Assembly: GCA_052389755.1 (NCBI GenBank) | Contig: JBQTHP010000099.1 | Span: 3,562-67,561, forward strand | Direction: 5' to 3' | Length of the DNA stretch: 64,000 nt | Origin: Gammaproteobacteria bacterium | GTDB taxonomy: Bacteria; Pseudomonadota; Gammaproteobacteria; Steroidobacterales; Steroidobacteraceae | Part shown: piece after piece, positions 10,904-55,013 of the stretch | Layout: the number at the start of each line of letters is the position of its first letter | Numbering within the stretch: position 1 is the first letter of the stretch | Made by a program: the position numbers and the translations under genes | The notes under the pieces: model-generated | Told to the model about the DNA's origin: nothing | The model's database searches: none | What the model saw: only the letters and a program-made list of their open reading frames with translations

Positions 10904-11309
10904 GCGAAATCCCCCGGTAAACAAGACATGTCCACGGCGCAGGGCCGTGCAAAAAACCGGGGTTCAGCTGGAATGACGGCACGCATCCGCAAGCGAATCG
11001 GTGCGGTGCCGGCAGCCCCGCTGTCTCGGCAGATCCTCGCGAACCTGCTGGACCGGAAGCTTTGCGTCCCCGCCTCACGACGGGTTTGCCCTTACGCTCG
11101 GGCTTGAGTGAATCGCGTGCGAGGTGAAGTTGCAATCTGTCGGCATCTTCGGACGTAGGCGTTTTGCGACGCCGATGAGCCGCGATTCAACTTAAAGCAC
11201 GCGATGCGAGCCCTTCGCGTGCGACGATCGTTGCCGGCGGGGAGGGCGAACACGGCGCGCTGCGCTTCTTCCAGCGACGGCTCCGGCCGGAGTGCTCTAC
11301 CATTTGCGG

Positions 11310-13370
11310 ATGCTTAGTTACGTCATTTCTGCCGCGGTCTTCCTGATTCTCCTGATCGCCGGGCTCACGGTCTGGCGACGGCGGCTAGCGGGCTCGTCGC
11401 TGGCGCCGGCCTTCGGGGCACAGCTCGTATGGTCGGTGGTGCTCGCCAGAGCCGCGGTTAGTGCCACCGTGCCGCTGGCGCTGGTAGTAGTGATCGAGTA
11501 TTTGCGCACGCTCGCCTGGGCCATGGTGCTCGCGAGGTGCCTTGCCGGATCGTCCGATCCTCGGTCGATTCGACGCGCGCTACGACCGCTGTCGGCGCTG
11601 ATCATCGTCGTCGTCGCCGGGCTGATGGCCGGCATGTTTTCGGGTCAGCTGGCCTCGGTCGATGCGTATCTGGAGCGCTGGTGGGTGTGGGGGGCTTTGA
11701 TTCTGTCCATAGCGGGGCTCGTTCTGGTCGAGCAAGTCGCGCGCAACACGCGGTCTGCGCAGGAATGGCGCCTGAAGTACGTCTGGCTCTCCATAGGCGC
11801 GCTCTTCACGCTGGATCTGTGTCTGTATTCGATTGCGCTGCTGCGCGGCGGAATTGACCCGGCCCTGTGGGTTGCACGCGGCCTCATCAACGCAGTGCTC
11901 GGCGGCCTGCTGGCCCTTGGACTCACCCGAATCGTGGGCTGGCAGTCCGCATCGTTCCTGTCTCCCAGGCTCGTGTTTTTCAACGCCACTCTGCTCGGGG
12001 CCGCCTTCTACGTATTCGCGATGGCGGGCGCGAGCTACTTCATACGCGAGTTCGGCGGCAGCTGGGGAGCGGCGGGTCAAGCGGTGTTCCTCGCCGGCGC
12101 TGCCGTTGTGCTCGCTGTGGCCGTTCTGTCCGAACAGGCTCGCGCCTGGGCGCGGGTGACACTCGCCAAACACTTGTTTCCGTACCGCTATGACTTTCGC
12201 CGCGAGTGGCAGAACTTGACGCGCGCGCTTTCGCGTTCGGACGGCGTTCCGGTGTACGAGCGCATCGTGAAAGTCATGGCGATCTCGGTCAATTGCGGCA
12301 GCGGCGGGCTGTGGTTGCGTGACGCGGACGGTGTCTTCGTTCCGAGAGGCGGGGATCTTGCACATCCCACCGCACCTCGAGAGCCGCCCGGCAGCTCGTT
12401 TCTCGAGCATCTGGGGCGCCACGAATGGATCTGCGATCTCGACAAGATCAGGGGCAGCGGCGAAAAGGGCGGAAGTCCCGAACCTCCGGCGTGGATGCTG
12501 GACCACCCGAAGATCTGGCTCATCGTTCCACTGGTGTGCGAGGACACGCTGGTCGGATTCGTCGCGATCGGACATCCGCTGGCGAGGATGCGTTTGACCT
12601 GGGAGGAAATCGATCTCCTTCGCGCGGCCGGCCGGCAGGTGGCGAGCTATCTGGCATTCGAGCAGGCTGCAAAACGGCTCGCCGAGGCGCACCAGTTCGA
12701 AGCCGTCAATCGCATCTCGACGATCCTGATGCACGACCTGAAGCATCTGGTCGCGCAGCAGGCGCTCGTCGTCGAGAACGCAGCGCGACATCGGGGCAAT
12801 CCGGAGTTCTTCGACGACGCCATCCTCACGATCGAAAACTCCGTCAAGCGGATGAACCGGCTCATGGACGAGCTAAAGAGCGGCGTGCTGGCGGAGCACG
12901 GCCATCGCGTCGATCTGGCTGAAGTGTGCGCCGAGGTCACGCAGCGATGCGGTAGCCGCAAACCCTCCCCAACCCTGGTGGCTTACGACCGGAACGTCGA
13001 AGTCGTCCTGAATCGCGACCGCCTGCTCCACGCGCTCGAGCACATCGTGCGTAATGCGCAGGATGCGACGCCGTCCTCCGGCACCGTCTCCGTGCAACTG
13101 CGCAAGGTGGCAGAGCGCGCCGTCATCGAAGTGGTCGACACTGGAGTTGGCATGGACCCTCAGTTCATCCGCGACCGTCTGTTCCGGCCATTCGACACGA
13201 CCAAGGGAGGGGATGGCACCGGCATCGGCGCCTTCCAGGCGCGCGAGTTCGTCCGCAAGTGCGGCGGGAGCATCGAAGTCGAGAGCGCCGTCGGGGCGGG
13301 AACCCGATTTCTGGTGAGCCTGCCCCTGGCGCCTCCGCTGGGTGCCGTCGAACCTGCCGGTGCAGCATGA
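11310..13370 (+). CDS. prsK: PEP-CTERM system sensor histidine kinase PrsK
   Basis: Multi-TM N-terminal half, a central GAF-like region, H-box MHDLKHLV and G-boxes DTGVGM / GTGIGAFQAREF. It is coupled to prsR by an ATGA overlap. The ORF-track start at 11292 is GTG; the ATG at 11310 is preferred. Confidence 0.85.
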   Translation: MLSYVISAAVFLILLIAGLTVWRRRLAGSSLAPAFGAQLVWSVVLARAAVSATVPLALVVVIEYLRTLAWAMVLARCLAGSSDPRSIRRALRPLSALIIVVVAGLMAGMFSGQLASVDAYLERWWVWGALILSIAGLVLVEQVARNTRSAQEWRLKYVWLSIGALFTLDLCLYSIALLRGGIDPALWVARGLINAVLGGLLALGLTRIVGWQSASFLSPRLVFFNATLLGAAFYVFAMAGASYFIREFGGSWGAAGQAVFLAGAAVVLAVAVLSEQARAWARVTLAKHLFPYRYDFRREWQNLTRALSRSDGVPVYERIVKVMAISVNCGSGGLWLRDADGVFVPRGGDLAHPTAPREPPGSSFLEHLGRHEWICDLDKIRGSGEKGGSPEPPAWMLDHPKIWLIVPLVCEDTLVGFVAIGHPLARMRLTWEEIDLLRAAGRQVASYLAFEQAAKRLAEAHQFEAVNRISTILMHDLKHLVAQQALVVENAARHRGNPEFFDDAILTIENSVKRMNRLMDELKSGVLAEHGHRVDLAEVCAEVTQRCGSRKPSPTLVAYDRNVEVVLNRDRLLHALEHIVRNAQDATPSSGTVSVQLRKVAERAVIEVVDTGVGMDPQFIRDRLFRPFDTTKGGDGTGIGAFQAREFVRKCGGSIEVESAVGAGTRFLVSLPLAPPLGAVEPAGAA

Positions 13371-16335: not shown

Positions 16336-17910
16336 ATGAAGGAGCTGATTGGACAGATTCTGAACCATGCGCGCGGCGCATGGCGCTTTCGCTGGCACGC
16401 GATCGGCGCTGCGTGGTCGTTCGCGCTCATCGGCTGGATCGTCGCGCTGCTCCAGCCGGACATCTACGAAGCGCGGACGCGCGTCTACGTCGACAGCGAT
16501 TCGGTTCTCAGACCGTTGCTCACGGGGCTGGCGGTCAACACCGACGTCTCGAATCGCGTCAACATGATGTCCCGCGTACTCATGGGTCGGCCGAATCTGG
16601 AGCGCGTCGCCCGCGAAACGGACCTGTATCTGCGCGCGCCGACCCCGGCGGATTTCGAGGCGCTGGTTACGTCGCTCGCCATCGCCATCGAGCTCCAGGG
16701 TGGAGGCCGCGATAACGTCTATTCGCTGCGATATTCCGACCAGGACCCCGCCATGGCGCAGCGGGTAGTCCAGGCGCTGCTCGACGTGTTCGTCGAGGAC
16801 ACACTCGGCGGAAAGCGCGCTGATAGCGACTCCGCGCAGCAGTTTCTGCAAGTGCAGATCCGAGAGTACGACAGCCGGCTCCGCCAGGCGGAAGATCAGC
16901 TGGCGGACTTCAAGAAGCGCAATGTCGGCCTGATGCCAGGGGAGACCGGGGACTACTACACGCGGTTGCAGACGGCAAGCGGCCTGCTGCAGGACTTGCG
17001 GGCCAAGCAACGCCTCGCGTCGCAGCGACGCAGCGAGCTCGAGAAGCAGCTCAAAGGCGAGGAACCGACGTTTGGCATCTTTGCCGAGGCGGACACGGGC
17101 ACCGCGGACGGCCAGATCGCCGAGTACCGCCGCCAGCTCGAGCAGCTGCTGCTGCAGTACACCGACAAACATCCGCGCGTCCTCGCGCTGCGGGATACCA
17201 TCGCGCAGCTGGAAGCGCGAGACGCCGCAACGAATTCCCGCACGCGGCGCCCCGGCGCGGTGCCGCGCGATCCTGCCGCGGCGGCCGGCTTCGCGCTCGA
17301 CATCAATCCCGTCTACCAGAATCTCCGCATCGAATTGAGCCGCACACAGGTCGAGCTGGCGGAGCTGCGGCAGCAGATTTCGGAGCAAGAGGCCCTCGTT
17401 GGCGCGCTCCGCTCGAGAGTCGACACGATCCCACAGACGGAAGCAGAGCTGGTGCGCCTCAACCGCGACTACGAGGTGAACAAGGCACAGCACCAGGCAC
17501 TCCTGCAGCGGCTCGAGTCCGCGCGGTTGTCCGAGCGAGCCGAAACGAACGCGGAGGGAGTGAAGTTCCGCATCATCGAGCCGCCGACCGCGCCGCTGAT
17601 CCCCGTGAGTCCGGACCGCGCACTCCTGCTCACGGCGGTGCTCCTGACCGCGCTGGCGGCCGGTGTCGCAGTCGCGTTCGCGTTGGACCAGATGCGGCCG
17701 GTCTTCTCGTCACGCGGACTTCTGGCGGCAGTAACGGGCCTGCCCGTGCTCGGCGCGATCAGTCTGACGGCTCCGGCAGCGCAGCCACCGTGGCTTCGCC
17801 GGCAGCCGGTGCTGGTCGCGGCGGCGTACGCGGGCCTGGTAGCGACGTACCTGCTCGCGATGCGGCTGGCCGATCCTGCGGGAAAGCTTCTGCGGACCCT
17901 GGCGGGTTGA
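16336..17910 (+). CDS. polysaccharide chain-length determinant (Wzz/PCP), PEP-CTERM locus subfamily
   Basis: 524 aa with an N-terminal TM segment after RFRWHAIGAAW, a long coiled-coil periplasmic region and a C-terminal TM pair. Its position between export and kinase genes supports the call. Confidence 0.8.
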   Translation: MKELIGQILNHARGAWRFRWHAIGAAWSFALIGWIVALLQPDIYEARTRVYVDSDSVLRPLLTGLAVNTDVSNRVNMMSRVLMGRPNLERVARETDLYLRAPTPADFEALVTSLAIAIELQGGGRDNVYSLRYSDQDPAMAQRVVQALLDVFVEDTLGGKRADSDSAQQFLQVQIREYDSRLRQAEDQLADFKKRNVGLMPGETGDYYTRLQTASGLLQDLRAKQRLASQRRSELEKQLKGEEPTFGIFAEADTGTADGQIAEYRRQLEQLLLQYTDKHPRVLALRDTIAQLEARDAATNSRTRRPGAVPRDPAAAAGFALDINPVYQNLRIELSRTQVELAELRQQISEQEALVGALRSRVDTIPQTEAELVRLNRDYEVNKAQHQALLQRLESARLSERAETNAEGVKFRIIEPPTAPLIPVSPDRALLLTAVLLTALAAGVAVAFALDQMRPVFSSRGLLAAVTGLPVLGAISLTAPAAQPPWLRRQPVLVAAAYAGLVATYLLAMRLADPAGKLLRTLAG

Positions 17911-21278: not shown

Positions 21279-23212
21279 TGTGCGGAATCGTCGGACTCAC
21301 ATTCGCTGAAGGCGAGCTCGGTGCTTCCGTCGAGGCAGTCCGCCGCATGTCGGGTTCGATCGTGCATCGCGGTCCGGACGACGAGGGCGTGTACTCCGGC
21401 GAGGGCGTGGTGCTCGGCATGCGCCGCCTTTCCATCATCGATCTTGCGGGCGGGCATCAGCCGATCGCAAACGAAGACGAGACCGTGTGGGTGGTGTGCA
21501 ACGGCGAGATCTACAACTTTCGCGAGTTGCGGGCCGAGCTCCGGCGCGCCGGTCATCGCTTTCGGACGGGCAGCGACGTCGAGGTGCTCGTGCACCTGTA
21601 CGAGGAGCACGGCGATCGTTTCCTGGACAAGGTATCCGGCATGTTCGCGTTGGCGCTGTGGGACGTCAGGCGACGGCAGCTGACGCTCGCGCGGGACCGG
21701 CTCGGCATCAAACCGCTCTACTACACCGAATCGCAGGGACGGTTCGGCTTCGCGTCCGAAGTGAAGGCGCTGCTCACCGTGCCCGGCGTGCGCGCGAGCA
21801 TCGACCGCCAGGGTCTGCGCGATCACCTCGCGCTCGGCTATGCCGTCGCGCCTGTAACGATCTTCGCTGGCATCCGCAAGCTGCCGCCGGCGACGAAGCT
21901 CGTCTGGACGCCGTCGGGATGGCGTACCACCGTCTACTGGGCGCCGCCCGATCGGACGGACGAGCAGCTCGAGGAAGCGGACTGCATCGAGCTCATTCGG
22001 GCCGAGCTCCGGCGCGTGGTCACGGAGCACATGGTGAGCGACGTGCCGATCGGCGCGTTCCTGAGCGGCGGCATCGACTCGAGCGCCGTCGTCGCTCTCA
22101 TGGCCGAGCGCAGCGACCGGCCGGTGAACACCTATTCCATCGGATACGGCGGCGACGCCTCGGCCAGCTATTACAACGAGCTGCCGTATGCGAGCCAGGT
22201 CGCGCGGCAATTCGCGACACTTCATAACGAGATCGTGGTGCATCCGGACGCTTCGGCGCTGTTGCCGAAGCTGCTGTGGCATGTGGAGGAGCCGTTGAGT
22301 GACAGCGCCACGGCAACGACGTATCTCGTCTCCGACCTCGCTGCCAGACACGTGAAAGTGATCCTCTCCGGCGTCGGCGGCGACGAGCTCTTCGCCGGCT
22401 ACACGCGATATCTCGGCGATCATTACACGCGCCGTTACCGGCAGCTGCCAGGCTGGCTGCGCCGGCACGTCATCACTCGCATCGCGCGCGCTCTTCCGAG
22501 CGGCCGGCACAGCCGCGTCATGGATCTGTCGCGCTACGCGAGAAAGTTCGTCGGTGCGAGCGAGCTCGGATGGCGCGAGCAGTACCGCCGGTTCATGGAG
22601 ATTCAGACGCGCGATCAGCTGGCTGTCCTGCTCACCGACGCACCAGACGTTCCCGATGGCCTCGATCGCGTCCTGTCGGAGGAGACCGGTGCTGACCCGC
22701 TCCTGCGGCTGCTGCGCGTCGATGCGCGCACGCAGCTCGCCGAGGATCTGCTGCTGCTCACTGACAAGATGACAATGGCGCGTTCCATCGAATGCCGCGT
22801 ACCGTTCCTCGATCACCGCCTGGTCGAGGCCGCGGCACGGATCCCGGCGCGACTGAAGCTGCGGCGCGGTGAGCTGAAATACGTGCTGAAGCGGGCGCTC
22901 ACGGGCATTCTCCCGGATACGATCCTCGAGCGAGGCAAGCGCGGTTTCGGTGCACCGATCGGCGCCTGGTTCAAGGCCGATCTCAGACCGCTGCGAGACA
23001 CGCTGCTGAGCGAGGCTGCGGTCGAGCGGCGCGGACTGCTCGCGTGGCCGGCGGTGCACGAGCTGCTCGAAGCGCACGATGCGAGTCGCGAGGACTACAC
23101 GGACCTGATCCTCACGCTCGTCAATCTCGAGATCTGGTGCCGCATGTTCCTCGACGGCCAGAGCGCGGACGATGTCGGTCACGAGCTTGCCGAGCAGACT
23201 CTCGCGGCTTGA
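21278..23212 (+). CDS. asparagine synthase (glutamine-hydrolysing) family amidotransferase, paralog 1
   Basis: Starts MCGIVGL (Ntn Cys2) at the TGATG junction with the FemAB gene, and contains SGGIDSS (PP-loop). The 957-aa ORF-track entry from 20339 is an out-of-context upstream extension. Confidence 0.9.
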   Translation: MCGIVGLTFAEGELGASVEAVRRMSGSIVHRGPDDEGVYSGEGVVLGMRRLSIIDLAGGHQPIANEDETVWVVCNGEIYNFRELRAELRRAGHRFRTGSDVEVLVHLYEEHGDRFLDKVSGMFALALWDVRRRQLTLARDRLGIKPLYYTESQGRFGFASEVKALLTVPGVRASIDRQGLRDHLALGYAVAPVTIFAGIRKLPPATKLVWTPSGWRTTVYWAPPDRTDEQLEEADCIELIRAELRRVVTEHMVSDVPIGAFLSGGIDSSAVVALMAERSDRPVNTYSIGYGGDASASYYNELPYASQVARQFATLHNEIVVHPDASALLPKLLWHVEEPLSDSATATTYLVSDLAARHVKVILSGVGGDELFAGYTRYLGDHYTRRYRQLPGWLRRHVITRIARALPSGRHSRVMDLSRYARKFVGASELGWREQYRRFMEIQTRDQLAVLLTDAPDVPDGLDRVLSEETGADPLLRLLRVDARTQLAEDLLLLTDKMTMARSIECRVPFLDHRLVEAAARIPARLKLRRGELKYVLKRALTGILPDTILERGKRGFGAPIGAWFKADLRPLRDTLLSEAAVERRGLLAWPAVHELLEAHDASREDYTDLILTLVNLEIWCRMFLDGQSADDVGHELAEQTLAA

Positions 23213-24710
23213 GGCGCTCCGGGCGGCCGTGAGCATCGGGCGCGGTGCGCGCGTGTGGCTCGCCGTGGCCGGACTCGCGGCGCTCGTCGTGGCCATATAC
23301 AGCGAGAGCTTTCTCGCCATCGTGAAGCTGTGGACGCTGAGCGCCTACGCTCACTGCTTTCTCGTGTTTCCGATCGCGTTCTATCTGCTGTGGCGCCGCC
23401 GCCAGGCGCTGGCCGCGATCGCGATCGAGCCGAGCTGGCCAGGGCTCGCTCTCGTGTGTGGCCTGGCTGTCGCCTGGTTCGTGGGGCGCGCGATCGCATT
23501 GCAGGCGCTGGAGCACGCCGCCGCGATCGCTGCGATTCCCGCGATGGTGCTCGCGGTAATGGGCACGCGCTTCCTGCGCGCAGCGCTGTTGCCGATGGTA
23601 TTCCTGTTGCTGGCCGCTCCGGTCGGCGAGTTTCTCATTCCCGTTCTGATGGAAGTGACGGCGGCCATCGCGAGCTTGCTCCTCGGTGTCGTCGGCATCC
23701 CCGTGTATCGCGAGGGCATGTTCATCAGTCTGCCGGGCGGAGACTTCGAAGTCGCCGAGGTCTGCTCGGGATTGAAGTACCTGCTCGCCAGCCTGCCGCT
23801 CGCGTTGCTGTTTGCGTCGTGGGCCTATCGCCGGACGCTCCATCGCGTGGTGTTCGTCGCCGTCACGGTAGGTGTGTTCATCGTGGGCAATGGCCTGCGG
23901 GCGTTCATCGTGATGATCGTCGCCTCCGGGTCGGACCTGCGCTATTTCGCGGGCCAGGATCACGTCGTCTTCGGAAACGTGTTGTTCGTCGCGCTGCTCG
24001 CGCTCGTCTGCTGGGTGGGCTGGAAATACGCCGATCCGCCCGAGGCAGCGAAAGCGATCGGTCCAGCGGACTCGCACGCAGGAAGCGCCGTGCGCTCGAT
24101 CGCGGTCGCGGCCGCGGCGGCCGCGAGCCTCTCGGTCGGTTCCGCCGCCCATGCCTGGCGCGTGCCGGTGGCAGGGCCGGCCCCGACCGCGCCGCGGCTG
24201 CCGGCGCTCACCGGCTGCACCGGTCCCGGCGAATGGGCCGCCGACTGGACGCCGGTGCTGCTCGGAGCAAGTCTACAGACGCGGGCCACGTATCGCTGCG
24301 GCGAGATAGAAGTCCACATGCTGGTCGCTGCCTACCGCGGCACGAACCAGGGCCACGAGCTGGCGAGCAACGCCAATGTGCTCGTGCCTCAGGCGTGGTC
24401 CAGCAGCGGCTCGCGCGCGGACGCGCAGCTTGATCTCGGCGCAGACCGCACCCTGCTCATGAATGAAATTGCCATCGCTCGGTCCAGCCGTGCACTCTTC
24501 GCGTGGTACTGGTACAGCGTGAACGACGAGCCGACCCGTACGCCCCGCGGAGTGAAAGTGCGCGAAGCGCTGGGGGCGATCTTCCTGAAGCCCACCGTCT
24601 CCAGAGCGTACCTCGTCGCGGCCACTGGCCCTGCGGATCGCATCGAGGCGCTGCGCGGTCCGGTGATCGACCTTGCTCGAGAGGTCTGGCACGCACGGGA
24701 GGCGCGATGA
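23172..24710 (+). CDS. xrtA: exosortase A (XrtA/EpsH) fused to an EpsI-family domain
   Basis: The N-terminal ~300 aa is polytopic with exosortase-like blocks (YAHCFLVFPIAFYLLW, FEVAEVCSGLKYL, GNGLRAFIV). The C-terminal ~200 aa is soluble and resembles EpsI (TIGR02914), which is often a separate gene. Confidence 0.85.
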   Translation: MSVTSLPSRLSRLEALRAAVSIGRGARVWLAVAGLAALVVAIYSESFLAIVKLWTLSAYAHCFLVFPIAFYLLWRRRQALAAIAIEPSWPGLALVCGLAVAWFVGRAIALQALEHAAAIAAIPAMVLAVMGTRFLRAALLPMVFLLLAAPVGEFLIPVLMEVTAAIASLLLGVVGIPVYREGMFISLPGGDFEVAEVCSGLKYLLASLPLALLFASWAYRRTLHRVVFVAVTVGVFIVGNGLRAFIVMIVASGSDLRYFAGQDHVVFGNVLFVALLALVCWVGWKYADPPEAAKAIGPADSHAGSAVRSIAVAAAAAASLSVGSAAHAWRVPVAGPAPTAPRLPALTGCTGPGEWAADWTPVLLGASLQTRATYRCGEIEVHMLVAAYRGTNQGHELASNANVLVPQAWSSSGSRADAQLDLGADRTLLMNEIAIARSSRALFAWYWYSVNDEPTRTPRGVKVREALGAIFLKPTVSRAYLVAATGPADRIEALRGPVIDLAREVWHAREAR

Positions 24711-38430: not shown

Positions 38431-38586
38431 GGTCGAGGCGAGAGCTCGCTTACTCGATCAGCATCGGGTGCGGGTACGTACCCGCCCGTGCAAACGCATC
38501 GGAAACTGGACGCACGGACATTTTTCGCGCTACCTTGAAGCGGCAGTTACGTGAGCTCATGCTCGAGCTCGTCGGTGGCTGAAAAC

Positions 38587-39402
38587 ATGACAAGCGGCCC
38601 GCCAGCTGCAGACCCATTCACGGAGTACTACGCGCGCGAAAGCCTGAGTGAGGCCACGCGTGCACGGTTCGCCGGCACCAAGGACGCGATCTTCTGCGTA
38701 CTCCGACAACGCGGTCTCCCGTGCGAGCGGCTCACCGTGGCGGATATCGGTTGCGGTGCAGCCACGCAGGCAATCCTGTGGGCGCGCGACGGGCACCGGG
38801 TATTTGGAGCTGACATCAACGAGCAACTGATCGCGCTCGGTCGCGAACGCGTGCGAGAGGCGGGTGTGCGCGTGGAGCTCGAGGCAGCGAGCGCCGTGAG
38901 ACTGCCCTGGGCCTCACAGAGCATGGACGTCTGTCTTTTGCCGGAGCTGCTGGAACACGTCCGCGACTGGCGCAAGTGTCTCAGTGAAGCGGCACGCCTG
39001 CTCAAACCGAGCGGCCTGCTCTTTATCAGCACCACGAACCGCCTCTGTCCGGTGCAGCAGGAGTTCGAGCTGCCGTTCTACAGCTGGTATCCGGCGCGTC
39101 TCAAACGGCGCTTCGAACGGCTCGCGACGACGACGCGCCCAGATCTCGTAAACAACGCAGAGTTCCCGGCTGTCCACTGGTTCGATTTCTATTCGCTGCG
39201 GCGCGCGCCCGAGCTGAGTGAGTTCACCTGCCTGGATCGCTTCGACGTCGCCGCGCTGCGCGAGCGAGGCGCGGCGACACGAACCCTCCTCAAGCTCATC
39301 ACGCAATCGCCGCTCTTGCGCGGGCTCGCGCACGTTGCCACTCCGTACACCACTGTGTTTGCGATACGCAGCCGCCCCATGATGCCGGACGCTCGGCAGT
39401 AG
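38587..39402 (+). CDS. class I SAM-dependent methyltransferase
   Basis: VADIGCGAATQA (motif I), VFGADIN, MDVCLLPELLEHV and LKPSGLLFISTTN. The ATG at 38587 is preferred to the GTG at 38551. Confidence 0.8.
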   Translation: MTSGPPAADPFTEYYARESLSEATRARFAGTKDAIFCVLRQRGLPCERLTVADIGCGAATQAILWARDGHRVFGADINEQLIALGRERVREAGVRVELEAASAVRLPWASQSMDVCLLPELLEHVRDWRKCLSEAARLLKPSGLLFISTTNRLCPVQQEFELPFYSWYPARLKRRFERLATTTRPDLVNNAEFPAVHWFDFYSLRRAPELSEFTCLDRFDVAALRERGAATRTLLKLITQSPLLRGLAHVATPYTTVFAIRSRPMMPDARQ

Positions 39403-39529
39403 ACGGCCGTTCGAACGCGGCTGCGCGATTAGTTGGAAGTGCGAAGCACGTCACGCAACCTCGCGTCAGAGGCGGTTGTCGTTCGCTAACGACAATTGCG
39501 GAGGAGTCGAGTGTCCGGGTACAGTGATT

Positions 39530-39621
39530 CCAGCGAAAGGGCAAACCCGTCGTAAGGCGGGGACGCAAAGCCACCGGTCCGTGGGATTCGAGGATAGCGG
39601 GGTTGCCGGATGAAACGCTGG
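39530..39621 (+). promoter_or_regulatory. c-di-GMP-I (GEMM-I) riboswitch aptamer
   Basis: CCAGCG-AAAGGGCAAACC-CGUC-GUAA-GGCG-GGGACGCAAAGCCACCGG...AUAGCGGGGUUGCCGGAUG-AAA-CGCUGG. All conserved GEMM-I blocks are present in order, with a GNRA-capped hairpin and a closing P1 CCAGCG/CGCUGG. It lies 111 nt upstream of the ATG at 39733. Confidence 0.85.
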
Positions 39622-39732
39622 GGTAGTCCGAGCGGTTCACAGCCACCTGCCGATTCCCGCCGATCCTCTAGCGACCATGTCGATTCGGATGGTCAGCGTC
39701 GTAATGCGTGTGTTTCAGCTGGGGAGTGTTGA

Positions 39733-40980
39733 ATGAAACGTAGGGATTTCCTCGCTACGTCCGCGGGCCTCGCCGGTGCGATGCTTCCGGCTCTGGGACG
39801 GGGTCTACCGTGCCCTCCGCCCGCATTGAGCGCAGTTGGTGGAACGTCGTCCACGAACCCCTGCAATGCACCGGGCACTGCGCCGGCTTGGTTCACAGGC
39901 ATGGGTGACAGGACCTGGGCCGCGCCTGTGAGCAACTGGCTGGGAGCGAGTGGTGTAAAGGATCCGCTCGCGGACACGATCAACCGCGGGAACGACGGAC
40001 ACTCCGCGCTCATCAGCAACTGGACGGGCATGCTGGCGGATGACACGCGTCGCATGATCGCCATGCTCGGGAACGGAGGGCATGCGGGTTACAACGGCAA
40101 CGAGGTTTACTCGTGCGACCTCGGCCTGAGTACGCCGGCTTGGGTGCGGCGTCGCAACGCGACACCATCTGTGCCGGGAGTAGATCTGACGAAATGGCCG
40201 GACGGCAGTCCCGTGGCGGACCACACCGCGCAGTTACAGTGCGCGGGCGGAGGCCGCTGGTTCAAGTTCGGCCTCGCCTCAACGAACTACAACGGCTGGG
40301 CTCACTACGAGAGTTGGTGGGAGTACAGCCTCGAGAGTGAGGACTACATCGATCGGTCGAGTTCGGCTTACGCCTTGAGCGGCTCGGTGCTTGCGGTCGA
40401 TGGCCTCGCGCTCTTCGATCCGATCGACCGGAGTTTCCTGGTCTTTCACAAGAACTTCGTGTCGCCGGGGATTGGTGTTGTTGATTCCAATACGCTCGCA
40501 CTCAAACGAGGTGCAAACCCAGGCGGCTTCGCCACCTCCAACACACTGACCGCAGCGATCGACACGAAGCGCCGTCTGCTTCTCGTGCGCATGGATATCG
40601 GCTGTGAAGTGTGGAACCTCGAAAACTTCACCAAGCTCGCGACGATCACACCTAGCGGTGCGCAGCCAACTCTGCACAGCTCACTGTACTATCACGAACC
40701 CTCTGATGCCTTCATTACTTGGGATGGTGGCAGCAGCATCCGAAAGCTCAAGCCTACCGTGAATGCGCAGGGCACCAATTACACCGCGGTTGCGTGGTCA
40801 AGCGTGACGCCTGCTGGTGGTAGCACGGCCACTCCTCCGGGAAGTGGTCCGGAGCAGGGCATGTATAACAAAGTGCAGCTTCTGCAGAACATGGGAAACG
40901 GACAGAGCGCGCTCGTCATCGTGCCGCAGTACGCCGCACCCGACGTGTTCGTGTTCAAGCTCCCTGCGACAGGCATCTGA
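39733..40980 (+). CDS. Tat-signal secreted protein of unknown function (possibly beta-propeller-like)
   Basis: GGGGAG SD at 39721-39726. Twin-arginine motif MKRRDFLATSAG...ALGRG, then PCPPP...GGTS..PC. The remainder is rich in short W/G/N beta-like segments (GNGGHAGYNGNEVYSCDL). No family could be assigned. Confidence 0.75.
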   Translation: MKRRDFLATSAGLAGAMLPALGRGLPCPPPALSAVGGTSSTNPCNAPGTAPAWFTGMGDRTWAAPVSNWLGASGVKDPLADTINRGNDGHSALISNWTGMLADDTRRMIAMLGNGGHAGYNGNEVYSCDLGLSTPAWVRRRNATPSVPGVDLTKWPDGSPVADHTAQLQCAGGGRWFKFGLASTNYNGWAHYESWWEYSLESEDYIDRSSSAYALSGSVLAVDGLALFDPIDRSFLVFHKNFVSPGIGVVDSNTLALKRGANPGGFATSNTLTAAIDTKRRLLLVRMDIGCEVWNLENFTKLATITPSGAQPTLHSSLYYHEPSDAFITWDGGSSIRKLKPTVNAQGTNYTAVAWSSVTPAGGSTATPPGSGPEQGMYNKVQLLQNMGNGQSALVIVPQYAAPDVFVFKLPATGI

Positions 40981-41015
40981 GCGCAGCTCATCCTTACGAA
41001 GATCGGGAACGATAA

Positions 41016-42143
41016 ATGAAGCGCAGAGATTTCCTCTTGTCGTCTGCTGGAGTTGCGGGCGTCATTCTGCCGGCCTTGGGCAGGGGACAGAATCGACCGT
41101 GTCCTCCGCCTTCCGTCAACGTCAGCGGGGGAACGTCGGCGACGACGCCATGCGGTAGTGCCACCGCAGAAGCGGACTGGCTCGCGCGCTCCACCGGCCA
41201 GGGCGTTGTCTGGGCGCACGACTTCCGGAATCAGGCCGAAGTCGATCTCTTCCGCTGGACCGGAGGATACTCGGGCGGTAACGATCCACTCGGGAAGGGC
41301 AGCGGTGCCATGAAGTGTTTCCGCCAGACTGCTGACGGTGTCACCGGCGGTGCGTGTCTCGAGCAGATTCGGCCTGCGGGAGCCAATGAAGCCTCGGGTG
41401 CGTGGTGGCGTCCCTTCTCGGCCGTGAATAACAACGGGCGCGGATTTCCTGATCCGGCAGCGAATGGCACTGTGCCGGTGCAGAATTGGAATCCCACGGA
41501 CGGCGGCAATCAGACGAATAGTTGGGGGACGCGGGGTGTCTACGGTCATCCCAGTTACGCTGGACCCGGCTTTGACGGTACCGAGTTTTATCTCCAGATG
41601 CGCGTCAGGATGGACCCGCGTCGACTCAGCACTGGCATGCCACAGGTCGGTAAGCTCACCTTTTTGTCGCACACCGCAGCCTCGCTTACCGCGCAGGAAC
41701 TCGTGACGTATTCGGGCGCGATCTTCAATGGACGGAACTTCTTCCGCGTGTACGGCCCGGGATTCACGCCGCTGGAAGTGCTCGACATACTGGGACGCCC
41801 CGGGCAGCAGGTCGGGAACGATCTCGGGTTCTGCGATGTTACAGCGAGTCCCGGCAACTGCTGGGCGTGGTCGGGCGGCTGGGACACCGTGATGTACCAC
41901 ATCACGCCCGGTAGACGAGGTGTCGCGGAAACGCGCTTCGTAGTTCTTGCCGCGCATGAAGGCGAGACGGTGTACCGCAAGATCTGGGACCAAGGCTATG
42001 CGACCAACTATGACTTCGACAACGGCTGGAATGCGCTGATCACCTCGACCTTCCAGAACGGGTTCCCCTGCCCAAGTGAGTTCTGGCACCGCTACGATCA
42101 GATCATTCTGTCCAAGCAGTTCATTGCCTGTCCGTTGGTATGA
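41016..42143 (+). CDS. Tat-signal secreted protein of unknown function; N-terminal module paralogous to the upstream gene
   Basis: MKRRDFLLSSAGVAGVILPALGRGQNRPCPPPSVNVSGGTSATTPC is about 65 percent identical to the first ~48 aa of the 39733 protein. The rest is unrelated by eye. It starts 35 nt after the upstream stop, so is probably co-transcribed. Confidence 0.75.
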   Translation: MKRRDFLLSSAGVAGVILPALGRGQNRPCPPPSVNVSGGTSATTPCGSATAEADWLARSTGQGVVWAHDFRNQAEVDLFRWTGGYSGGNDPLGKGSGAMKCFRQTADGVTGGACLEQIRPAGANEASGAWWRPFSAVNNNGRGFPDPAANGTVPVQNWNPTDGGNQTNSWGTRGVYGHPSYAGPGFDGTEFYLQMRVRMDPRRLSTGMPQVGKLTFLSHTAASLTAQELVTYSGAIFNGRNFFRVYGPGFTPLEVLDILGRPGQQVGNDLGFCDVTASPGNCWAWSGGWDTVMYHITPGRRGVAETRFVVLAAHEGETVYRKIWDQGYATNYDFDNGWNALITSTFQNGFPCPSEFWHRYDQIILSKQFIACPLV

Positions 42144-42313
42144 GCCGTGGCACATGGAGTAGTATCGTCTGTCCACGGTACTGCGCGCTGAGGACGATCA
42201 ACCTCGCCATCGAGGGCAGCCGCGCGCGACGGAGACGTGGCTCCCGGCGATTACGTTCATCTGGGCGGTAGCGGGGATAATCCTGCTATCCTGACGGGCG
42301 ACAGGTTTCCGGC

Positions 42314-43063
42314 ATGCGCGCAGCCCCGCACACGATCCTCACATTCATATGCGTGTCGGTATCCGCCTACGTTCTCGGAGCCGCGTGTGTTCCTGGGGCC
42401 GCCTCCGCCGCGCAGCCGCACGTTGATGATTTTGTTGCGTGTGGCAAGAAGCGCGAGATAAAAACGGGGGGAAACTACGGGCTAACCGATTACCGCTTGC
42501 GAGAGATCTCGTCGGCGACGAAGCGCGCCCTCGCTGACCTGGATTCGCACCACACGAATCCCGCGGTGGAAGCCATGTTCCGCGGCGCCTACGGCGGAGA
42601 GGTCAAGGCCGACCTGAACTTTACGTTGGTGCATTCCCCGAATCACCATCGAGCATTGCAGGCATTGGTTCAGTACGATCGCGCGGGAGGCAAGGCTGGC
42701 GGATTTCCGGCCACGGAGTGCTATTTCCATTGGGCGCAGGTTTTCGCACCTGACGACTCCCGAGTTTGGATGATAGGGGGTTACTACTTCTGGACGAAAG
42801 GTGACCGTTCGCGGGCGGAGACGTGGTACCGCCAGGCGCTCCAGTTCGACCCCGAATACGCCGACGCACACTACAATCTCGGCCTGCTCTACTTCGAGCT
42901 GGCGGATTTCGAGCGATCTCTCGAGCATGCGCGGGCCGCGTATGAAGCTGGCTACCCCTTGGTAGGACTACGAAACAAGCTCGAGCGCTCGGGACATTGG
43001 CAGGCGTCGCCGCCGCCCGCGCCGCTGCAATCCGCCGAAAATCCCCGGGACAACGGCAGGTGA
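42314..43063 (+). CDS. secreted TPR-repeat protein
   Basis: Signal peptide ILTFICVSVSAYVLGAACVPGAASA. TPR units AETWYRQALQFDPEYADAHYNLGLLYFELADFERSLEHARAA. Confidence 0.7.
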   Translation: MRAAPHTILTFICVSVSAYVLGAACVPGAASAAQPHVDDFVACGKKREIKTGGNYGLTDYRLREISSATKRALADLDSHHTNPAVEAMFRGAYGGEVKADLNFTLVHSPNHHRALQALVQYDRAGGKAGGFPATECYFHWAQVFAPDDSRVWMIGGYYFWTKGDRSRAETWYRQALQFDPEYADAHYNLGLLYFELADFERSLEHARAAYEAGYPLVGLRNKLERSGHWQASPPPAPLQSAENPRDNGR

Positions 43064-51597: not shown

Positions 51598-52908
51598 ATG
51601 ACGAAGATCGTTGTGCTCGGTACCGGCATGGCCGGCTTCGGCGCGAGTCAGTTTCTTTCCGCAGAGGGAATCCGGCCGGTCGTATACGACAAGAATTCCT
51701 ACCACGGGGGACACACGGCTTCGTTCCGCGACGGTAGTGGCTTTCTGTTCGATCAAGGGCCCCATATCTCGTTCACGAAGGACCCGCGCATCCAGAACCT
51801 TTTCGCGGGCTACATCGACGGGAAGCACGAATCCGTTCAGATCAATCTCGACAACTACTGGCGTGGCCTCAAGCTGACGCACCCTGTACAGCTGCATCTG
51901 CACGGACTGCCGACCGACCTGGTCGTGGAGATCATCGCCGACTTCGTGAAGGAGCAGCACGCTCCCGAGCGGCCCATCGCGAACTACGAGGATTGGCTGA
52001 TAGCAAGTTACGGGAAAAAGTTCGCCGAAGTGTTCCCGATGACGTACACGCGCAAGTACCACCTGACCTCAGCCAGCAACATGAGCACGGACTGGCTCGG
52101 TCCGCGCATGTACCGCCCGAATCTCGAGGAGATGCTTCGCGGGGCGCTCGCACCGTGGACGCCGGATCTGCACTACATCACGCATTTTCGTTATCCGAGC
52201 AACGGGGGTTTCGGCTCGTACCTGCGGGATTTCCCCGGTGTCGCAGACCTCAGGCTGAGCCACGAGCTCGTGCGGATCGATCCCGCTGAGAGAGAGCTCC
52301 GGTTCTCGAACGGCGTTGCGACTGATTACGACGGCCTGGTCTCGTCGATCGCGCTGCCGGATCTCGTGCCGATGATCGCGGGCGCACCGCAGGACGTCAT
52401 TGAGGCGGCGAGCCGGCTCGCATGCTCGACGTGCGTTCTGGTCAATGTTGGCGTCGACCGCTCGGATCTGTCGAATGCGCAGATGACCTACTTTTACGAC
52501 GAGAATATCTGTTTCACGCGCATCAGCTTCCCGCACATGCTGTCTGCCAGCAACGTGCCTTCAGGGTGCGGAAGCATCCAGGCGGAGGTGTATTTCTCCA
52601 GGAAGTATCGGCCTCTCAGCCAGCCGCCCGAAAGCCTGATCGACCAGGTGATCGCGGATCTGCGCAGCAGCGGGACCATTCGGGAAAGCGACGGGATCCT
52701 GTCGCGTCATGCCAGAGTGGTGCAGTACGCGAACGTGATATTCGACCTCGACCGCGCCGCGGCTCTGAAGACCGTACATGGTTATCTCGATGAGATCGGA
52801 ATCGCGTATTGCGGCAGGTACGGCGACTGGGGATACATGTGGACCGATGAAAGCTTCAAGAGCGGGGAGCGGGCCGCCCAGACGGCACTGTCACAGTGCT
52901 GCGTTTGA
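51598..52908 (+). CDS. FAD-dependent oxidoreductase (amine oxidase / protoporphyrinogen oxidase-like fold)
   Basis: N-terminal dinucleotide motif KIVVLGTGMAGFGA...VYDKNSYHGGH and C-terminal GRYGDWGYMWTDES. Confidence 0.7.
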   Translation: MTKIVVLGTGMAGFGASQFLSAEGIRPVVYDKNSYHGGHTASFRDGSGFLFDQGPHISFTKDPRIQNLFAGYIDGKHESVQINLDNYWRGLKLTHPVQLHLHGLPTDLVVEIIADFVKEQHAPERPIANYEDWLIASYGKKFAEVFPMTYTRKYHLTSASNMSTDWLGPRMYRPNLEEMLRGALAPWTPDLHYITHFRYPSNGGFGSYLRDFPGVADLRLSHELVRIDPAERELRFSNGVATDYDGLVSSIALPDLVPMIAGAPQDVIEAASRLACSTCVLVNVGVDRSDLSNAQMTYFYDENICFTRISFPHMLSASNVPSGCGSIQAEVYFSRKYRPLSQPPESLIDQVIADLRSSGTIRESDGILSRHARVVQYANVIFDLDRAAALKTVHGYLDEIGIAYCGRYGDWGYMWTDESFKSGERAAQTALSQCCV

Positions 52909-52920
52909 CGGCCGCACGAT

Positions 52921-54123
52921 GTGATGCACCACCGGAGCTACTGGAAGACCATCGCGATCTCGGCCTCGATCGGCGCACTGACCCTGTTTGCCATGTTGTC
53001 GATGACGATGGTGCGCCTACCGCGCGCTTTGCTCGTCCTCATGCTCCTGATTTCGGCCGTCGTGTTCGCAGTGTGCATCCTCGTCACCCTCGGCGGCCTG
53101 GTTTGTCTGTGGCGCGACGCTGGCGAAGCCCGCGGGCAGGCCGACCCATTCGTCCTCGCCGCTGACCGGCCGCGGTCGGGAAGCGTACTGTCTGCGCTCG
53201 GACTCGGGTTTCTTCGCGGGCGCAAGCTGTACGCCGGCGACGTAGTGCAGGTGAGATCGCTGCAAGAGATCGAGTCGACGCTCGATGACGCGCGAACGCT
53301 GGACGGCTTGCCGTTCATGGGGGAGATGGAAGCGTTCTGCGGGAAGACTTTCCGGGTGCATCGGCGCATCGACAAGATCAACGACATGCGCAACAAGACG
53401 GGCCTGCGGCGCATGGATGACACCGTGACGCTGGCAGACGTGCGATGCTCGGGGTCGCACCACGGCGGTTGCCAGGCGGAATGTCAGATCCTGTGGAAGG
53501 AGGCGTGGCTGAAGAGGACGCCCGGCCGCGCCTCCGGGTTCCTGGCACCCGCGTCCGAATCGCTGCCGCAGGTTTTCGACGATCGGACCTACGTCTGCCA
53601 GATGACGGGTCTATGGGGTGCCTCTCACCCGATGTCCGTGGCGGACATCCGCCAGGATCTCCGGCCGATTCTCGCGGGGAACGTGACCGTGGTCGCCTAT
53701 GTGTTGGCCATCCTGACGCGCATCTTCAACCGCGCACAACGTCTGCGCGGTGGGGCCGGCTACCCGTACATGCCGGATTCGCCGACCCGGGGCCACAGTC
53801 CGTCTGAAGACCTGCAGCTCGCCCCGCGCGAAGCGGTCGTGATTCGGAGCAGAGAGGAGATCGCGAAGACGCTGGTGAACGGCAGGAATCAGGGTCTCTG
53901 GTTCGACCGGGACATGTCGCGGTTCTGTGGGCAGAGCGCTATCGTTCGCCGCCGCATCGATCACATCATCCACGAAGGTACCGGCAAGATGGTCGTACTC
54001 AGGACCCCCTGCGTGACGCTCGAAGGCGTCGTCGCGACCGGCGAGTTCCTGAGATTCTGTCCCCAGCACGAATGGATCCTCTGGCGCGAGATCTGGCTTC
54101 GACGGGCGGACCAGAGCCAGTGA
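52921..54123 (+). CDS. membrane-anchored protein of unknown function with an internally duplicated ~95-aa Cys-containing module
   Basis: Two N-terminal TM helices. Module 1 (aa ~104-199) is GDVVQVRSLQEIESTLD...FCGKTFRVHRRIDKI...ILWKEAWLKR. Module 2 (aa ~300-396) is REAVVIRSREEIAKTLV...FCGQSAIVRRRIDHI...ILWREIWLRR. Confidence 0.65.
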   Translation: MMHHRSYWKTIAISASIGALTLFAMLSMTMVRLPRALLVLMLLISAVVFAVCILVTLGGLVCLWRDAGEARGQADPFVLAADRPRSGSVLSALGLGFLRGRKLYAGDVVQVRSLQEIESTLDDARTLDGLPFMGEMEAFCGKTFRVHRRIDKINDMRNKTGLRRMDDTVTLADVRCSGSHHGGCQAECQILWKEAWLKRTPGRASGFLAPASESLPQVFDDRTYVCQMTGLWGASHPMSVADIRQDLRPILAGNVTVVAYVLAILTRIFNRAQRLRGGAGYPYMPDSPTRGHSPSEDLQLAPREAVVIRSREEIAKTLVNGRNQGLWFDRDMSRFCGQSAIVRRRIDHIIHEGTGKMVVLRTPCVTLEGVVATGEFLRFCPQHEWILWREIWLRRADQSQ

Positions 54124-54128
54124 AAACG

Positions 54129-55013
54129 ATGTCCGAGCCTCCCCTGGTTACCATCGGTCTGCCTGCCTACAACAGTGAGCGATTCATCAGGCGTTCCATC
54201 GACTCGCTCCTCGCGCAGACGTTCTCAGACTTCGTACTGGTCATCAGCGACAACGCCTCGACCGACAGTACGCCGCGCATCTGCCAGGAGTATGCCGAGA
54301 GCGATCGGCGGGTCAGATGCTTCCATAACCCGACGAACATCGGCAATCCGCGCAACTTCAACCGCCTGTTCGAGCTGACGGCCACCAAGTATCTGAAGTG
54401 GTCCACCACGGACGACTACTGGGAGCCGACATTCGTGGAGCGCGCGCTGGATGTAATGGAGCGCGACCCGACCGTCGCGCTGTGTTACCCGAAAACCTAC
54501 CTCATCGATGCGGAAGGTGGAACTCGAACGCCGTACGAGGACAACCTGCACCTGATGCAGGAGGATCCCGCGGAGCGGTTTCTGACGCTGCTCGGAAGCA
54601 TCGGGCTGGCACATCAGCACCTCGGGCTGATCAGGATGTCCTGCCTGCGGCGCACGCATCTTCTCGGCGCCTATGTCGCTTCCGACATCGCGCTGCTCGC
54701 CGAGCTGACTCTGTACGGTAAATTCTATGAATTGCCCGAGCGGCTTTACACCCGGACCTTTCATGAGAGGTCCGGGAGCTGGAAACGCGGAGACGCAGCA
54801 CACGAGGCCAGGCACTACCACAGCGCGGATCGCAGGCGAACCGGCCTGAAGAAATGGCGGGGTCACATGGGATTGCTGTCGGCCGTGCGGACAGCGCCTC
54901 TGCCGCTGCGCTCAAAAACCAGAATCTATCGTCACCTCCTGAGGCGCATGTTTTGGGATCGCCGCGACCTGATCGCCGAGCTCACAGGCCGGGAGCCCGC
55001 GCGGCCTCTCTAG
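54129..55013 (+). CDS. glycosyltransferase family 2
   Basis: VTIGLPAYNSERFIRRSIDSLLAQTFSDFVLVISDNASTD. ATG at 54129, just after the previous stop. Confidence 0.85.
   Translation: MSEPPLVTIGLPAYNSERFIRRSIDSLLAQTFSDFVLVISDNASTDSTPRICQEYAESDRRVRCFHNPTNIGNPRNFNRLFELTATKYLKWSTTDDYWEPTFVERALDVMERDPTVALCYPKTYLIDAEGGTRTPYEDNLHLMQEDPAERFLTLLGSIGLAHQHLGLIRMSCLRRTHLLGAYVASDIALLAELTLYGKFYELPERLYTRTFHERSGSWKRGDAAHEARHYHSADRRRTGLKKWRGHMGLLSAVRTAPLPLRSKTRIYRHLLRRMFWDRRDLIAELTGREPARPL

Follow-up and report, generated by a model that had tools for sequence, protein, structure and literature searches.

A conserved gene pair with a shared N-terminal module in XrtA/PEP-CTERM exopolysaccharide loci of uncultured Gammaproteobacteria

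The gene pair and its exopolysaccharide locus

The window analysed in this study was a 64,000-nucleotide stretch of contig JBQTHP010000099.1, from a gammaproteobacterium of the Steroidobacteraceae. It contains two neighbouring open reading frames (ORFs), A and B. Their products begin with a common N-terminal module, a putative twin-arginine translocation (Tat) signal followed by a cysteine- and proline-rich hinge, and then continue into different bodies. The window was identified as an XrtA/PEP-CTERM exopolysaccharide locus with NCBIfam models, and A and B recur as a conserved cassette in such loci of uncultured Gammaproteobacteria. Many environmental and wastewater bacteria form flocs and biofilms on the basis of XrtA/PEP-CTERM polysaccharide, and to our knowledge the enzymes that process it are essentially undescribed. 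We think it probable, on balance, that the exported proteins A and B co-operate in binding or degrading the exopolysaccharide of their locus, and that the shared N-terminus is an exchangeable targeting or tether module. The features of the pair and of its leader were as follows, where c-di-GMP is cyclic di-guanosine monophosphate.

39403-39732, plus strand: conserved 330-nt leader between a methyltransferase gene and ORF A
39532-39611, plus strand: c-di-GMP-I (GEMM-I) aptamer (Rfam RF03167)
39733-40980, plus strand: ORF A, 415 aa
39733-39804, plus strand: putative Tat-type signal peptide, ORF A residues 1-24 (MKRRDFLATSAGLAGAMLPALGRG), from the RR-x-F-L motif
39805-39864, plus strand: Cys/Pro hinge, ORF A residues 25-44 (LPCPPPALSAVGGTSSTNPC), from conservation in module alignment A3
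39865-40980, plus strand: ORF A body, predicted Kelch-type beta-propeller with the signature NGGHxDYxGNEVY (AlphaFold2 and Foldseek)
41016-42143, plus strand: ORF B, 375 aa
41016-41087, plus strand: putative Tat-type signal peptide, ORF B residues 1-24 (MKRRDFLLSSAGVAGVILPALGRG), from the motif and a weak Pfam TAT_signal score
41088-41153, plus strand: Cys/Pro hinge, ORF B residues 25-46 (QNRPCPPPSVNVSGGTSATTPC), from conservation in B-family alignment A2
41154-42143, plus strand: ORF B body, predicted beta-jelly-roll like those of polysaccharide lyases, ending FIACPLV (AlphaFold2 and Foldseek)

ORF A and ORF B lie on the same strand and are separated by 35 nt. Their lengths and positions were exactly those given in an earlier reading made from the letters of the DNA, referred to here as the sequence-only reading. 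When the two proteins were aligned by BLASTP, the N-terminal segment alone was significant (E 3e-17); the remaining segments had E > 1. The alignment contained 31 identities in 48 columns, which reproduced the earlier count, and the common stretch was confined to the first 44-46 residues. When the A and B families were compared profile to profile, A 1-83 was aligned to B 1-96 with a probability of 99.3%, and the per-column confidence was high only up to about residue 50. Both comparisons agreed with the earlier claim that the proteins diverge completely after the module. The module-coding stretches of A and B differed at many synonymous sites. This meant that the likeness was kept at the protein level and did not come from a recent copy, and the possibility that the leader had recently been duplicated or gene-converted was rejected on this ground. 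No further copies of the module were found in the 64-kb window besides those of A and B.

Both sense frames are real genes, as indicated by their homologues and by divergence at codon position 3. Searches gave 297 homologues of B and about 27 full-length homologues of A. A close-relative comparison strain (L033), 92-94% identical to the window, showed 87-89% identity to A and B at codon position 3 and 96-97% at positions 1 and 2. An antisense ORF of 465 aa (40779-42176, minus strand) that spans all of B was rejected as a by-product of the 64% G+C content, and no gene support was found for it.

A genome scan with the B profile gave 28 loci, all from metagenome-assembled genomes (MAGs). Most belonged to Steroidobacteraceae, Woeseiaceae and other Gammaproteobacteria, and a few to Myxococcota, Bdellovibrionales and Planctomycetales. 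The sequence-only reading had proposed co-occurrence with xrtA as a check, and exopolysaccharide synteny like that of the window was shared by about 22 of the 28 loci. A second module-bearing gene lay directly after B or within a few kb of it in 13 loci. This gene was A-like in L001, L005, L017, L021, L027, L030 and L036, and it encoded a more divergent propeller in L006, L007, L008, L010, L013 and L019. Weak Pfam matches to Kelch or galactose-oxidase central-domain models were obtained for three of the four divergent propellers tested (L006, L010, L013). The commonest order was B and then A, with a gene for a tetratricopeptide repeat (TPR) protein behind them in many loci, while the order in the window and in L033 was A, B, TPR. 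The TPR homologue adjoined the propeller gene in 12 bacterial loci with a module-bearing pair; among 87 viral loci there was no such case. Almost all module-bearing B genes stood in an XrtA-type context and module-less B genes mostly elsewhere, a contrast that is confounded with taxonomy.

The closest relative of B in the genome collection (59% identity) was found in an XrtA-type locus, L005 (CAZSVP010000004.1). This contig is labelled Candidatus Saccharibacteria, and the content of the locus suggests a mis-binned proteobacterial contig.

The setting in an exopolysaccharide locus, which the sequence-only reading had assumed, was confirmed by NCBIfam matches (June 2026 release) to PrsK, PrsR, XrtA and the chain-length determinant. 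Matches above cut-off in the window were TIGR03109, TIGR02916, TIGR02915, TIGR03007, TIGR03016 and TIGR03088. Strong matches below cut-off were TIGR03018 (203.1 against 230.65 bits) and TIGR03108 (541.1 against 816.9 bits). The neighbouring genes placed by coordinates were as follows.

11292-13370: PrsK (NCBIfam)
16336-17910: XrtA chain-length determinant (NCBIfam)
23172-24710: exosortase A (NCBIfam)
38551-39402: methyltransferase, upstream of the leader of ORF A
42314-43063, plus strand: small secreted TPR protein (Pfam TPR matches), a frequent third member of the cassette

Besides PrsR, NCBIfam identified a tyrosine kinase, the TIGR03016 outer-membrane protein, an XrtA-type amidotransferase and an stp2 glycosyltransferase. 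The window also held additional asparagine-synthase-like genes, GT4 genes, a deacetylase and a hydrolase. Further genes of the window were those for GT2-GtrA, Wzy_C, an exosortase-associated decarboxylase and an exosortase-associated AMP-ligase. The amidotransferases and acyl-modifying enzymes of the locus are compatible with a modified polymer.

Predicted folds of the two bodies

The sequence-only reading could name no family for either body, and none was found here by sequence. ORF B gave no match to its body in Pfam or NCBIfam, and ORF A gave none in Pfam, NCBIfam or PDB sequences. No characterised enzyme could be tied to either body through a sequence family. AlphaFold2 models were built on the family alignments. 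The model of B was a beta-jelly-roll with a predicted local distance difference test score (pLDDT) of 88.5 and a predicted template modelling score (pTM) of 0.85. Foldseek against the PDB placed the PL36 lyase Aly36B first (E 6.5e-9), with a template modelling (TM) score normalised to the target of 0.58-0.60. The PL36/PL14 superpositions gave E 6.5e-9 and target TM 0.58 for 6kzk, TM 0.60 for 6kcv and TM 0.56 for 5gmt. Next came the PL14 lyase AkAly30, the orphan TtX122 domain, Chlorella virus vAL-1, heparinase I and PL7, and lower in the list were lectins (legume lectins and ERGIC-53) and jelly-rolls associated with glycoside hydrolases. The body of B was thus predicted to be a jelly-roll, nearest among solved structures to the PL36 and PL14 lyases, which agreed with the possible jelly-roll of the sequence-only reading. 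Its likeness to the jelly-roll lyases PL36 (Aly36B), PL14 (AkAly30, vAL-1), PL7 and PL13 extended from E 6.5e-9 to about 1e-4 and over target TM 0.45-0.60.

In B, R58, Q194, Y246 and W289 were invariant among bacterial, phage and fused members, and R196, K213, E228, N348 and Q362 were conserved in at least 92% of the same set. The polar residues kept from bacteria to phages were R58, H68, R132, Q194, R196, K213, E228, Y246, N348 and Q362, and R196, K213, Q194, Y246, H68 and Q362 were located on predicted strands. Conserved Arg, Gln, Lys, Tyr and His on predicted strands would be a further likeness to the jelly-roll lyases. Judged by residue type, the conserved polar residues (R, Q, K, Y, H, N) are of the kinds typical of jelly-roll lyase clefts.

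Several results weighed against a lyase reading of B. The TM score normalised to B was moderate, at 0.40-0.42. Pfam lyase models gave no match to 57 members of the B family, and no PDB sequence matched B at E up to 10 in single-sequence and profile searches. B also differed from the known lyases in being about 100 residues bigger and in having no profile match to lyase models. When B was compared by hhalign with the weak PL14 domain of another module-bearing protein (P0194), the leader alone was aligned. The jelly-roll fold is common to lyases, hydrolases and lectins. The fold by itself is no proof that B acts as a lyase, and one of the structural matches, TtX122, had shown no activity or binding when assayed (PMC10916295).

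The model of A was an all-beta propeller from about residue 47, with about 25 strands, pLDDT 82.9 and pTM 0.83. Kelch propellers were on top of the Foldseek list against the PDB (domains of MKLN1, FBXO42 and KLHDC3), and among viral models the best match was an uncultured Caudovirales protein (E 1.1e-16, TM 0.68). The body of A was accordingly predicted to be a Kelch-type beta-propeller, and the propeller-like body described in the sequence-only reading was recovered by the model. H117, Y120, N123, E124, Y126 and H164 were invariant in an alignment of 24 A-family sequences. When bacterial and phage members were taken together, G116 and H117 were invariant and Y120, N123, E124, Y126 and H164 were kept in at least 86%. 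The moderate TM scores against the PDB (0.49 or below) and the empty sequence searches with A counted against this assignment. The Pfam Kelch motif was not found on ORF A; weak matches occurred only in the divergent propeller class and in P0028.

These folds and residues bear on two other explanations. According to the first, A and B would be non-catalytic matrix lectins or scaffolds that cross-link or guide the exopolysaccharide, and their phage homologues would serve receptor binding only. Jelly-roll and Kelch folds are common lectin folds, legume lectins and ERGIC-53 were among the matches of B, TtX122 was without detectable activity, phage tail fibres often bind only, and no catalytic motif of a named lyase was detected in the B family. 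However, the top structural matches of B were all lyases (PL36 and PL14, then PL13 and PL7), and numerous, densely placed charged and aromatic residues stayed invariant down to phage members at 27-31% identity. In addition, a glycanase is characteristic of exopolysaccharide operons, as in the case of AlgL, PelA, PslG and BcsZ. We regard the non-catalytic explanation as unlikely.

The second explanation, which we consider quite improbable, takes the Tat route as a sign of a cofactor. A would be a galactose-oxidase-like or other Cu/His-Tyr propeller that oxidises sugars, and B, as its partner, would bind carbohydrate. Enzymes with a cofactor are frequent among Tat substrates, the His and Tyr residues of A are conserved (G116 and H117 invariant; Y120, Y126 and H164 in at least 86%), and the divergent propellers weakly matched the Kelch and galactose-oxidase central-domain models. 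However, no galactose-oxidase or other redox family scored on A, and B has the same leader and lacks a comparable conserved His/Tyr cluster. The homologues in phage tails have no signal, and their context suggests no redox role.

The shared module and its replacement in phages and other bacteria

Residues 1-24 of A and B consist of MKRRDFL, a Gly/Ala/Ser-rich hydrophobic stretch and LPALGRG. Compared with the twin-arginine motif (S/T)-R-R-x-F-L-K, both proteins carried K2-R3-R4-D5-F6-L7, which was accepted as the motif. The module alignment A3 was composed of 36 modules drawn from the A and B families. In A numbering, R3, R4, C27 and C44 were invariant, and M1, K2, P26, P29, G36 and G37 were conserved in at least 90%. 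P28, C29, P30, P31, G39 and C46 were conserved in at least 90% of the B-family alignment A2. The consensus of the hinge was PCPPP-x-LSV-x-GG-x-S-xx-T-x-C. Most relatives had AxA and then Q at 2-4 residues ahead of PCPPP, and the window proteins had GRG.

The leader resembled Tat signal peptides (PF10518, TIGR01409) in K-R-R-x-F-L, in a mildly hydrophobic Gly/Ala/Ser-rich h-region and in a basic c-region residue with a small-x-small cleavage motif. It differed from them in scores below the cut-offs of the hidden Markov models, and in the equally conserved PCPPP...C peptide after the signal, which is part of no described Tat model. Pfam TAT_signal (PF10518) gave 17.3 bits for A and 14.9 bits for B against a cut-off of 22.7, and TIGR01409 gave 13.8 bits for A against 16.7 and no match for B. 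Weak TAT_signal matches were obtained for 13 of 57 B-family members. The Tat leader described in the sequence-only reading was thus upheld by the motif and by the invariant R3 and R4, and was not upheld by these scores, which count against it. The leader would be a twin-arginine signal by its motif, and it is from the motif that the Tat route is read.

A lipoprotein reading of A and B was ruled out. The lipobox [LVI][ASTVI][GAS]C was absent from the signal end of both proteins, where the residues before the cysteine are G-L-P in A and N-R-P in B, and the proline at -1 to the first cysteine was conserved family-wide. No PEP-CTERM motif was found in A (C-terminus FVFKLPATGI) or B (QFIACPLV), and no NCBIfam PEP-CTERM model matched. 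About 90% of the B family ends F-I-P-C-P-Q-V at the C-terminus (window 42120-42143), a second P-C-P like that of the hinge, and the C-terminal cysteine is kept even in the hinge-less member P0155. The module itself can be compared with the PEP-CTERM/exosortase signal. Each is a short conserved peptide of the sorting type, specific to proteins of XrtA-type loci, in which a basic cluster and a hydrophobic helix are combined with a Pro-rich motif. The module is approximately the mirror image, with its basic cluster N-terminal. The differences are that the module is N-terminal, with invariant Cys and RR, and that it shows no sign of XrtA processing.

A profile of the module with 49 positions was searched against 1.84 billion cluster representatives, where hits are clusters at 50% identity. 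There were 277 matches at E up to 1e-3 and 138 at E up to 1e-10, nearly always at residues 1-48. The bodies of the best 150 of the 277 matches and of 18 further module-bearing sequences were clustered. This gave B-like (48), A-like (38), ~247-aa (18) and ~711-aa (17) classes and several singletons, so that the module is carried by at least four unrelated body classes. One ~711-aa member matched the RIFT barrel of PcRGLX rhamnogalacturonan lyase, and another module-bearing protein had a Disaggregatase repeat, CBM96 and a weak PL14 match. P0030, of the ~247-aa class, sits in an exopolysaccharide locus. Where checked, module-bearing proteins had either a position in an exopolysaccharide locus or glycan-related domains. 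A block of amine oxidase, an uncharacterised ~400-aa protein and GT2 was seen both in the window (51598-55013) and in L034 (7973-11418). In L034 it stands beside P0030, and a ~247-aa gene of this kind is absent from the window.

The bodies were also found with other N-termini. The B body occurred with a Sec-type signal in L012, L026 and L029 and with a short signal-less N-terminus in L020 and L024. A betaproteobacterial MAG encoded it behind a lipoprotein signal, LSAC, and a perfect (Pro-Ala)n linker of about 100 residues (L028, 9668-11056). The shared export or anchoring module proposed in the sequence-only reading was in this way found to be widespread, with 277 clusters and at least four body classes, and to be replaced elsewhere by Sec, lipoprotein or phage N-termini on the same bodies. 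We found the module and the A/B pair described nowhere in the searchable literature. The two body families and the module are new in the sense that they have no Pfam or NCBIfam model and no description that we found. The general type of system, in which an exopolysaccharide operon controlled by c-di-GMP encodes secreted proteins that process the polymer, was already known.

Phage homologues were found for both bodies. A leader-less A-family member, P0018, was located in a prophage with Phage_capsid_3, SU10_adaptor and GP38, and the 515-aa protein directly upstream of it was B-like (39% identity over B residues 48-375). A scan of IMG/VR gave 95 relatives of A and 7 of B. With tblastn, a B-like gene was found directly upstream of an A-like gene on the same strand in 15 viral loci on 13 contigs. 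In L123 the pair was flanked by genes for a head-tail adaptor (phrog_332) and for a tail protein (phrog_376), and the A-like gene came immediately behind tail proteins in L041 and L039. The phage B-like proteins were often extended at the N-terminus by long stretches resembling FN3-type repeats in sequence. Single-chain fusions of B to A were encoded, independently of each other, on two IMG/VR contigs (L048, 6717-9281; L057, 6501-9215). The L048 fusion, of 854 aa, had the Tat-like start MHRRDFIG and no PCPPP hinge.

In several phage pairs a short N-terminal peptide was common to both proteins, as in L123 (MVtLvLRAkSAVGlF and vVnLaIRAsSAVGiF) and L040 (SWDIkYqT and SWDIlYkT). Compared by sequence, these peptides appear to mirror the shared bacterial leader. 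The phage pairs resembled tail fibres and depolymerases, which have an N-terminal anchor and swappable receptor-binding bodies, both in the position of the A and B bodies in tail modules and in the common peptide. The window proteins differ from them in that the N-terminus is a bacterial export signal with a Cys/Pro hinge, in a chromosomal locus with no phage genes nearby. The phage evidence came from metagenomic viral contigs only, which weighs against it; tblastn of both bodies against 50,697 GenBank phage records gave nothing.

A peptide of the type SNPFxVTI, SNSFNITI or SNAFNVTV occurred just before the body in the signal-less proteins P0012, P0013, P0014, P0018, L020, L024, L041 and L113, and may be a common docking strand. 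Some of the carriers are clearly phages, which is not obvious for L020, L024 and L038. L020 and L024, which are Myxococcota loci without the module, had no PHROG match to structural genes and for this reason were not counted as phages.

These results bear on whether the hinge has a function. We consider it somewhat unlikely that the shared N-terminus is only a Tat signal with an inert linker, spread by domain shuffling and serving export with no tethering or docking. This possibility would explain why the bodies occur with other leaders or none, and the Tat motif does account for the most conserved block, MKRRDFL. The module was also of low confidence in both AlphaFold2 models (pLDDT < 50 for residues 1-46 of A) and no structural role could be read from it, which speaks against a tether. 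However, the part after the predicted cleavage site was as conserved as the signal, with both cysteines invariant and PCPP and GG in at least 90%, across the 277 clusters and at least four body classes. Inert linkers do not keep such conservation. The betaproteobacterial relative has a lipid anchor with a Pro-Ala spacer, that is, a tether, at the equivalent position, and the phage pairs also share N-terminal peptides. In addition, modules of one genome were more alike than modules across genomes (permutation p about 5e-5). This likeness fits co-evolution with a shared partner, and conversion or compositional effects may contribute.

The presence of the B-then-A pair in tail modules of many uncultured phages and in one prophage also raises the possibility that the cassette was captured from a phage for defence or receptor editing. 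It would then trim or mask the exopolysaccharide as a receptor and have no part in biogenesis. This appears very improbable. The cassette has a fixed syntenic place in XrtA loci of Steroidobacteraceae, Woeseiaceae and other Gammaproteobacteria, the bacterial export module and the TPR partner are absent from the phages, and no phage genes flank the cassette in the window.

The c-di-GMP aptamer and the proposed function of the pair

The aptamer in the leader of ORF A belongs to the c-di-GMP-I clan (CL00126), scored 65.9 bits with RF03167 (gathering score 59, E 2.4e-13) and lies 122 nt ahead of the start codon. Its P1 stem can be extended by 39529-39534 and 39617-39622 (CCAGCG/CGCUGG), and the aptamer folded alone formed the extended P1. 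It reads GACGCAAAG where the consensus of the GGC variant (RF03167) reads GACGCGAAG, and it is identical there to the consensus of RF01051, which has the canonical A. We take the position that differs between the two to be the one that defines the GGC variant, and the G of that variant was not found in place of the A. Since the aptamer is canonical at this position, its ligand is expected to be c-di-GMP. The same aptamer was present in L033 (65.6 bits). The whole leader was 96.7% identical to that of L033, against 87-89% at codon position 3 of A and B and 62% in the spacer between B and the TPR gene. That spacer (42144-42313, 170 nt; L033 3992-4203, 212 nt) is a variable region between two strains with 93-96% identity in their genes.

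The aptamer resembled the c-di-GMP-I riboswitches of adhesin, pilus and matrix genes in a score above the gathering threshold, in the canonical A and in its place ahead of matrix-related genes. It differed from them in its best score with RF03167, in a short P2 hairpin and in having no recognisable platform of the terminator type. A second c-di-GMP-I aptamer (11008-11100, minus strand, RF01051, 62.7 bits), a further likeness to such riboswitches, precedes the gene of a 511-aa protein beside prsK (9389-10924, minus strand). With its lipobox (LTAC), four "tandem-95" repeats of the cadherin-like kind and an FN3-like domain at the C-terminus, this protein looks like an adhesin.

Several results counted against riboswitch control of the cassette. 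Neither a terminator nor a clear sequestering helix was found as expression platform, and the Shine-Dalgarno sequence was predicted to be mostly unpaired. Folding of the leader gave an insignificant z-score (-1.2) and no convincing alternative helix. The aptamer was absent from L001 and seven further homologous loci in Rfam searches, and from all loci covered by a pattern search. The riboswitch does not characterise the family as a whole, and control by it would be an addition specific to this lineage. The riboswitch at the head of the pair that the sequence-only reading had described was found by Rfam upstream of A, and the linkage turned out to be confined to this lineage; the co-occurrence of homologues with RF01051 proposed in that reading was not seen at the other homologous loci examined. 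No sigma-70-like promoter or intrinsic terminator was found in the leader or after B, and a search for sigma-54 patterns gave only chance-level matches.

The conserved adjacency of A and B in bacteria and in phages, two very different contexts, and the two B-A fusions fit the view that the proteins act together. In the reading that we prefer, B would most likely be a polysaccharide lyase, or another glycanase, and A a Kelch-type propeller that binds, or also processes, the polymer. The twin-arginine signal would export both proteins folded. Signal peptidase would cut after GRG (the place of AxA and then Q in relatives), leaving a mature N-terminus a few residues before PCPPP. The short proline-rich peptide that remains, with its two invariant cysteines, would be the exchangeable targeting part, and the hinge may tether or dock A and B to one partner. 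A and B might be partners of one another, linked by disulfides; other candidates are the TPR protein encoded beside them and, should the signal stay uncleaved, the membrane. The N-terminus would accordingly vary with the context, as a virion-docking peptide in phages, a lipid anchor with a spacer in the betaproteobacterium and a Tat signal with a Cys/Pro hinge in XrtA loci. In this lineage only, the aptamer would tie expression of the cassette to c-di-GMP, in whichever direction the switch acts, and the leader and both genes would be co-transcribed.

By analogy with AlgL, PelA, PslG and BcsZ, the most likely task of the pair in bacteria is to trim or clear, in the periplasm, the polymer of its own locus. 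The likeness lies in a secreted, putatively polysaccharide-active protein in the locus of the polymer itself, with the lyase-like fold predicted for B and a conserved position. The differences are that there is no sequence relation, that two proteins and a TPR protein are involved, and that these have a shared Tat/Cys-Pro leader and phage-tail homologues. The matrix role suggested in the sequence-only reading (lyase, hydrolase or lectin) was strengthened by the lyase folds matched by the model of B, by the cassette in XrtA loci and by the phage tail modules. A bolder proposal, which we hold only tentatively and consider doubtful, is that the hinge peptide is an undescribed N-terminal sorting or docking signal of XrtA-type systems, a counterpart to PEP-CTERM. 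At least four unrelated glycan-active families would then be tethered at the machinery of polymer assembly or export, for example through TPR or disulfides, and B with A would form a unit for glycan recognition or depolymerisation that phage tails and host loci have exchanged.

These results nominate two widely conserved, uncharacterised families as polymer-active proteins, a possible new lyase family and its propeller partner, and name specific residues of A and B as targets for mutation. The occurrence of the same pair in phage tail modules of uncultured viruses is an independent clue to function, and candidate depolymerases can be drawn from these viruses. Second-messenger control of matrix processing can be approached in a simple way through the c-di-GMP riboswitch of this lineage. 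With its occurrence in 277 protein clusters, the shared Cys/Pro leader is a concrete candidate signal for targeting or tethering of a new kind.

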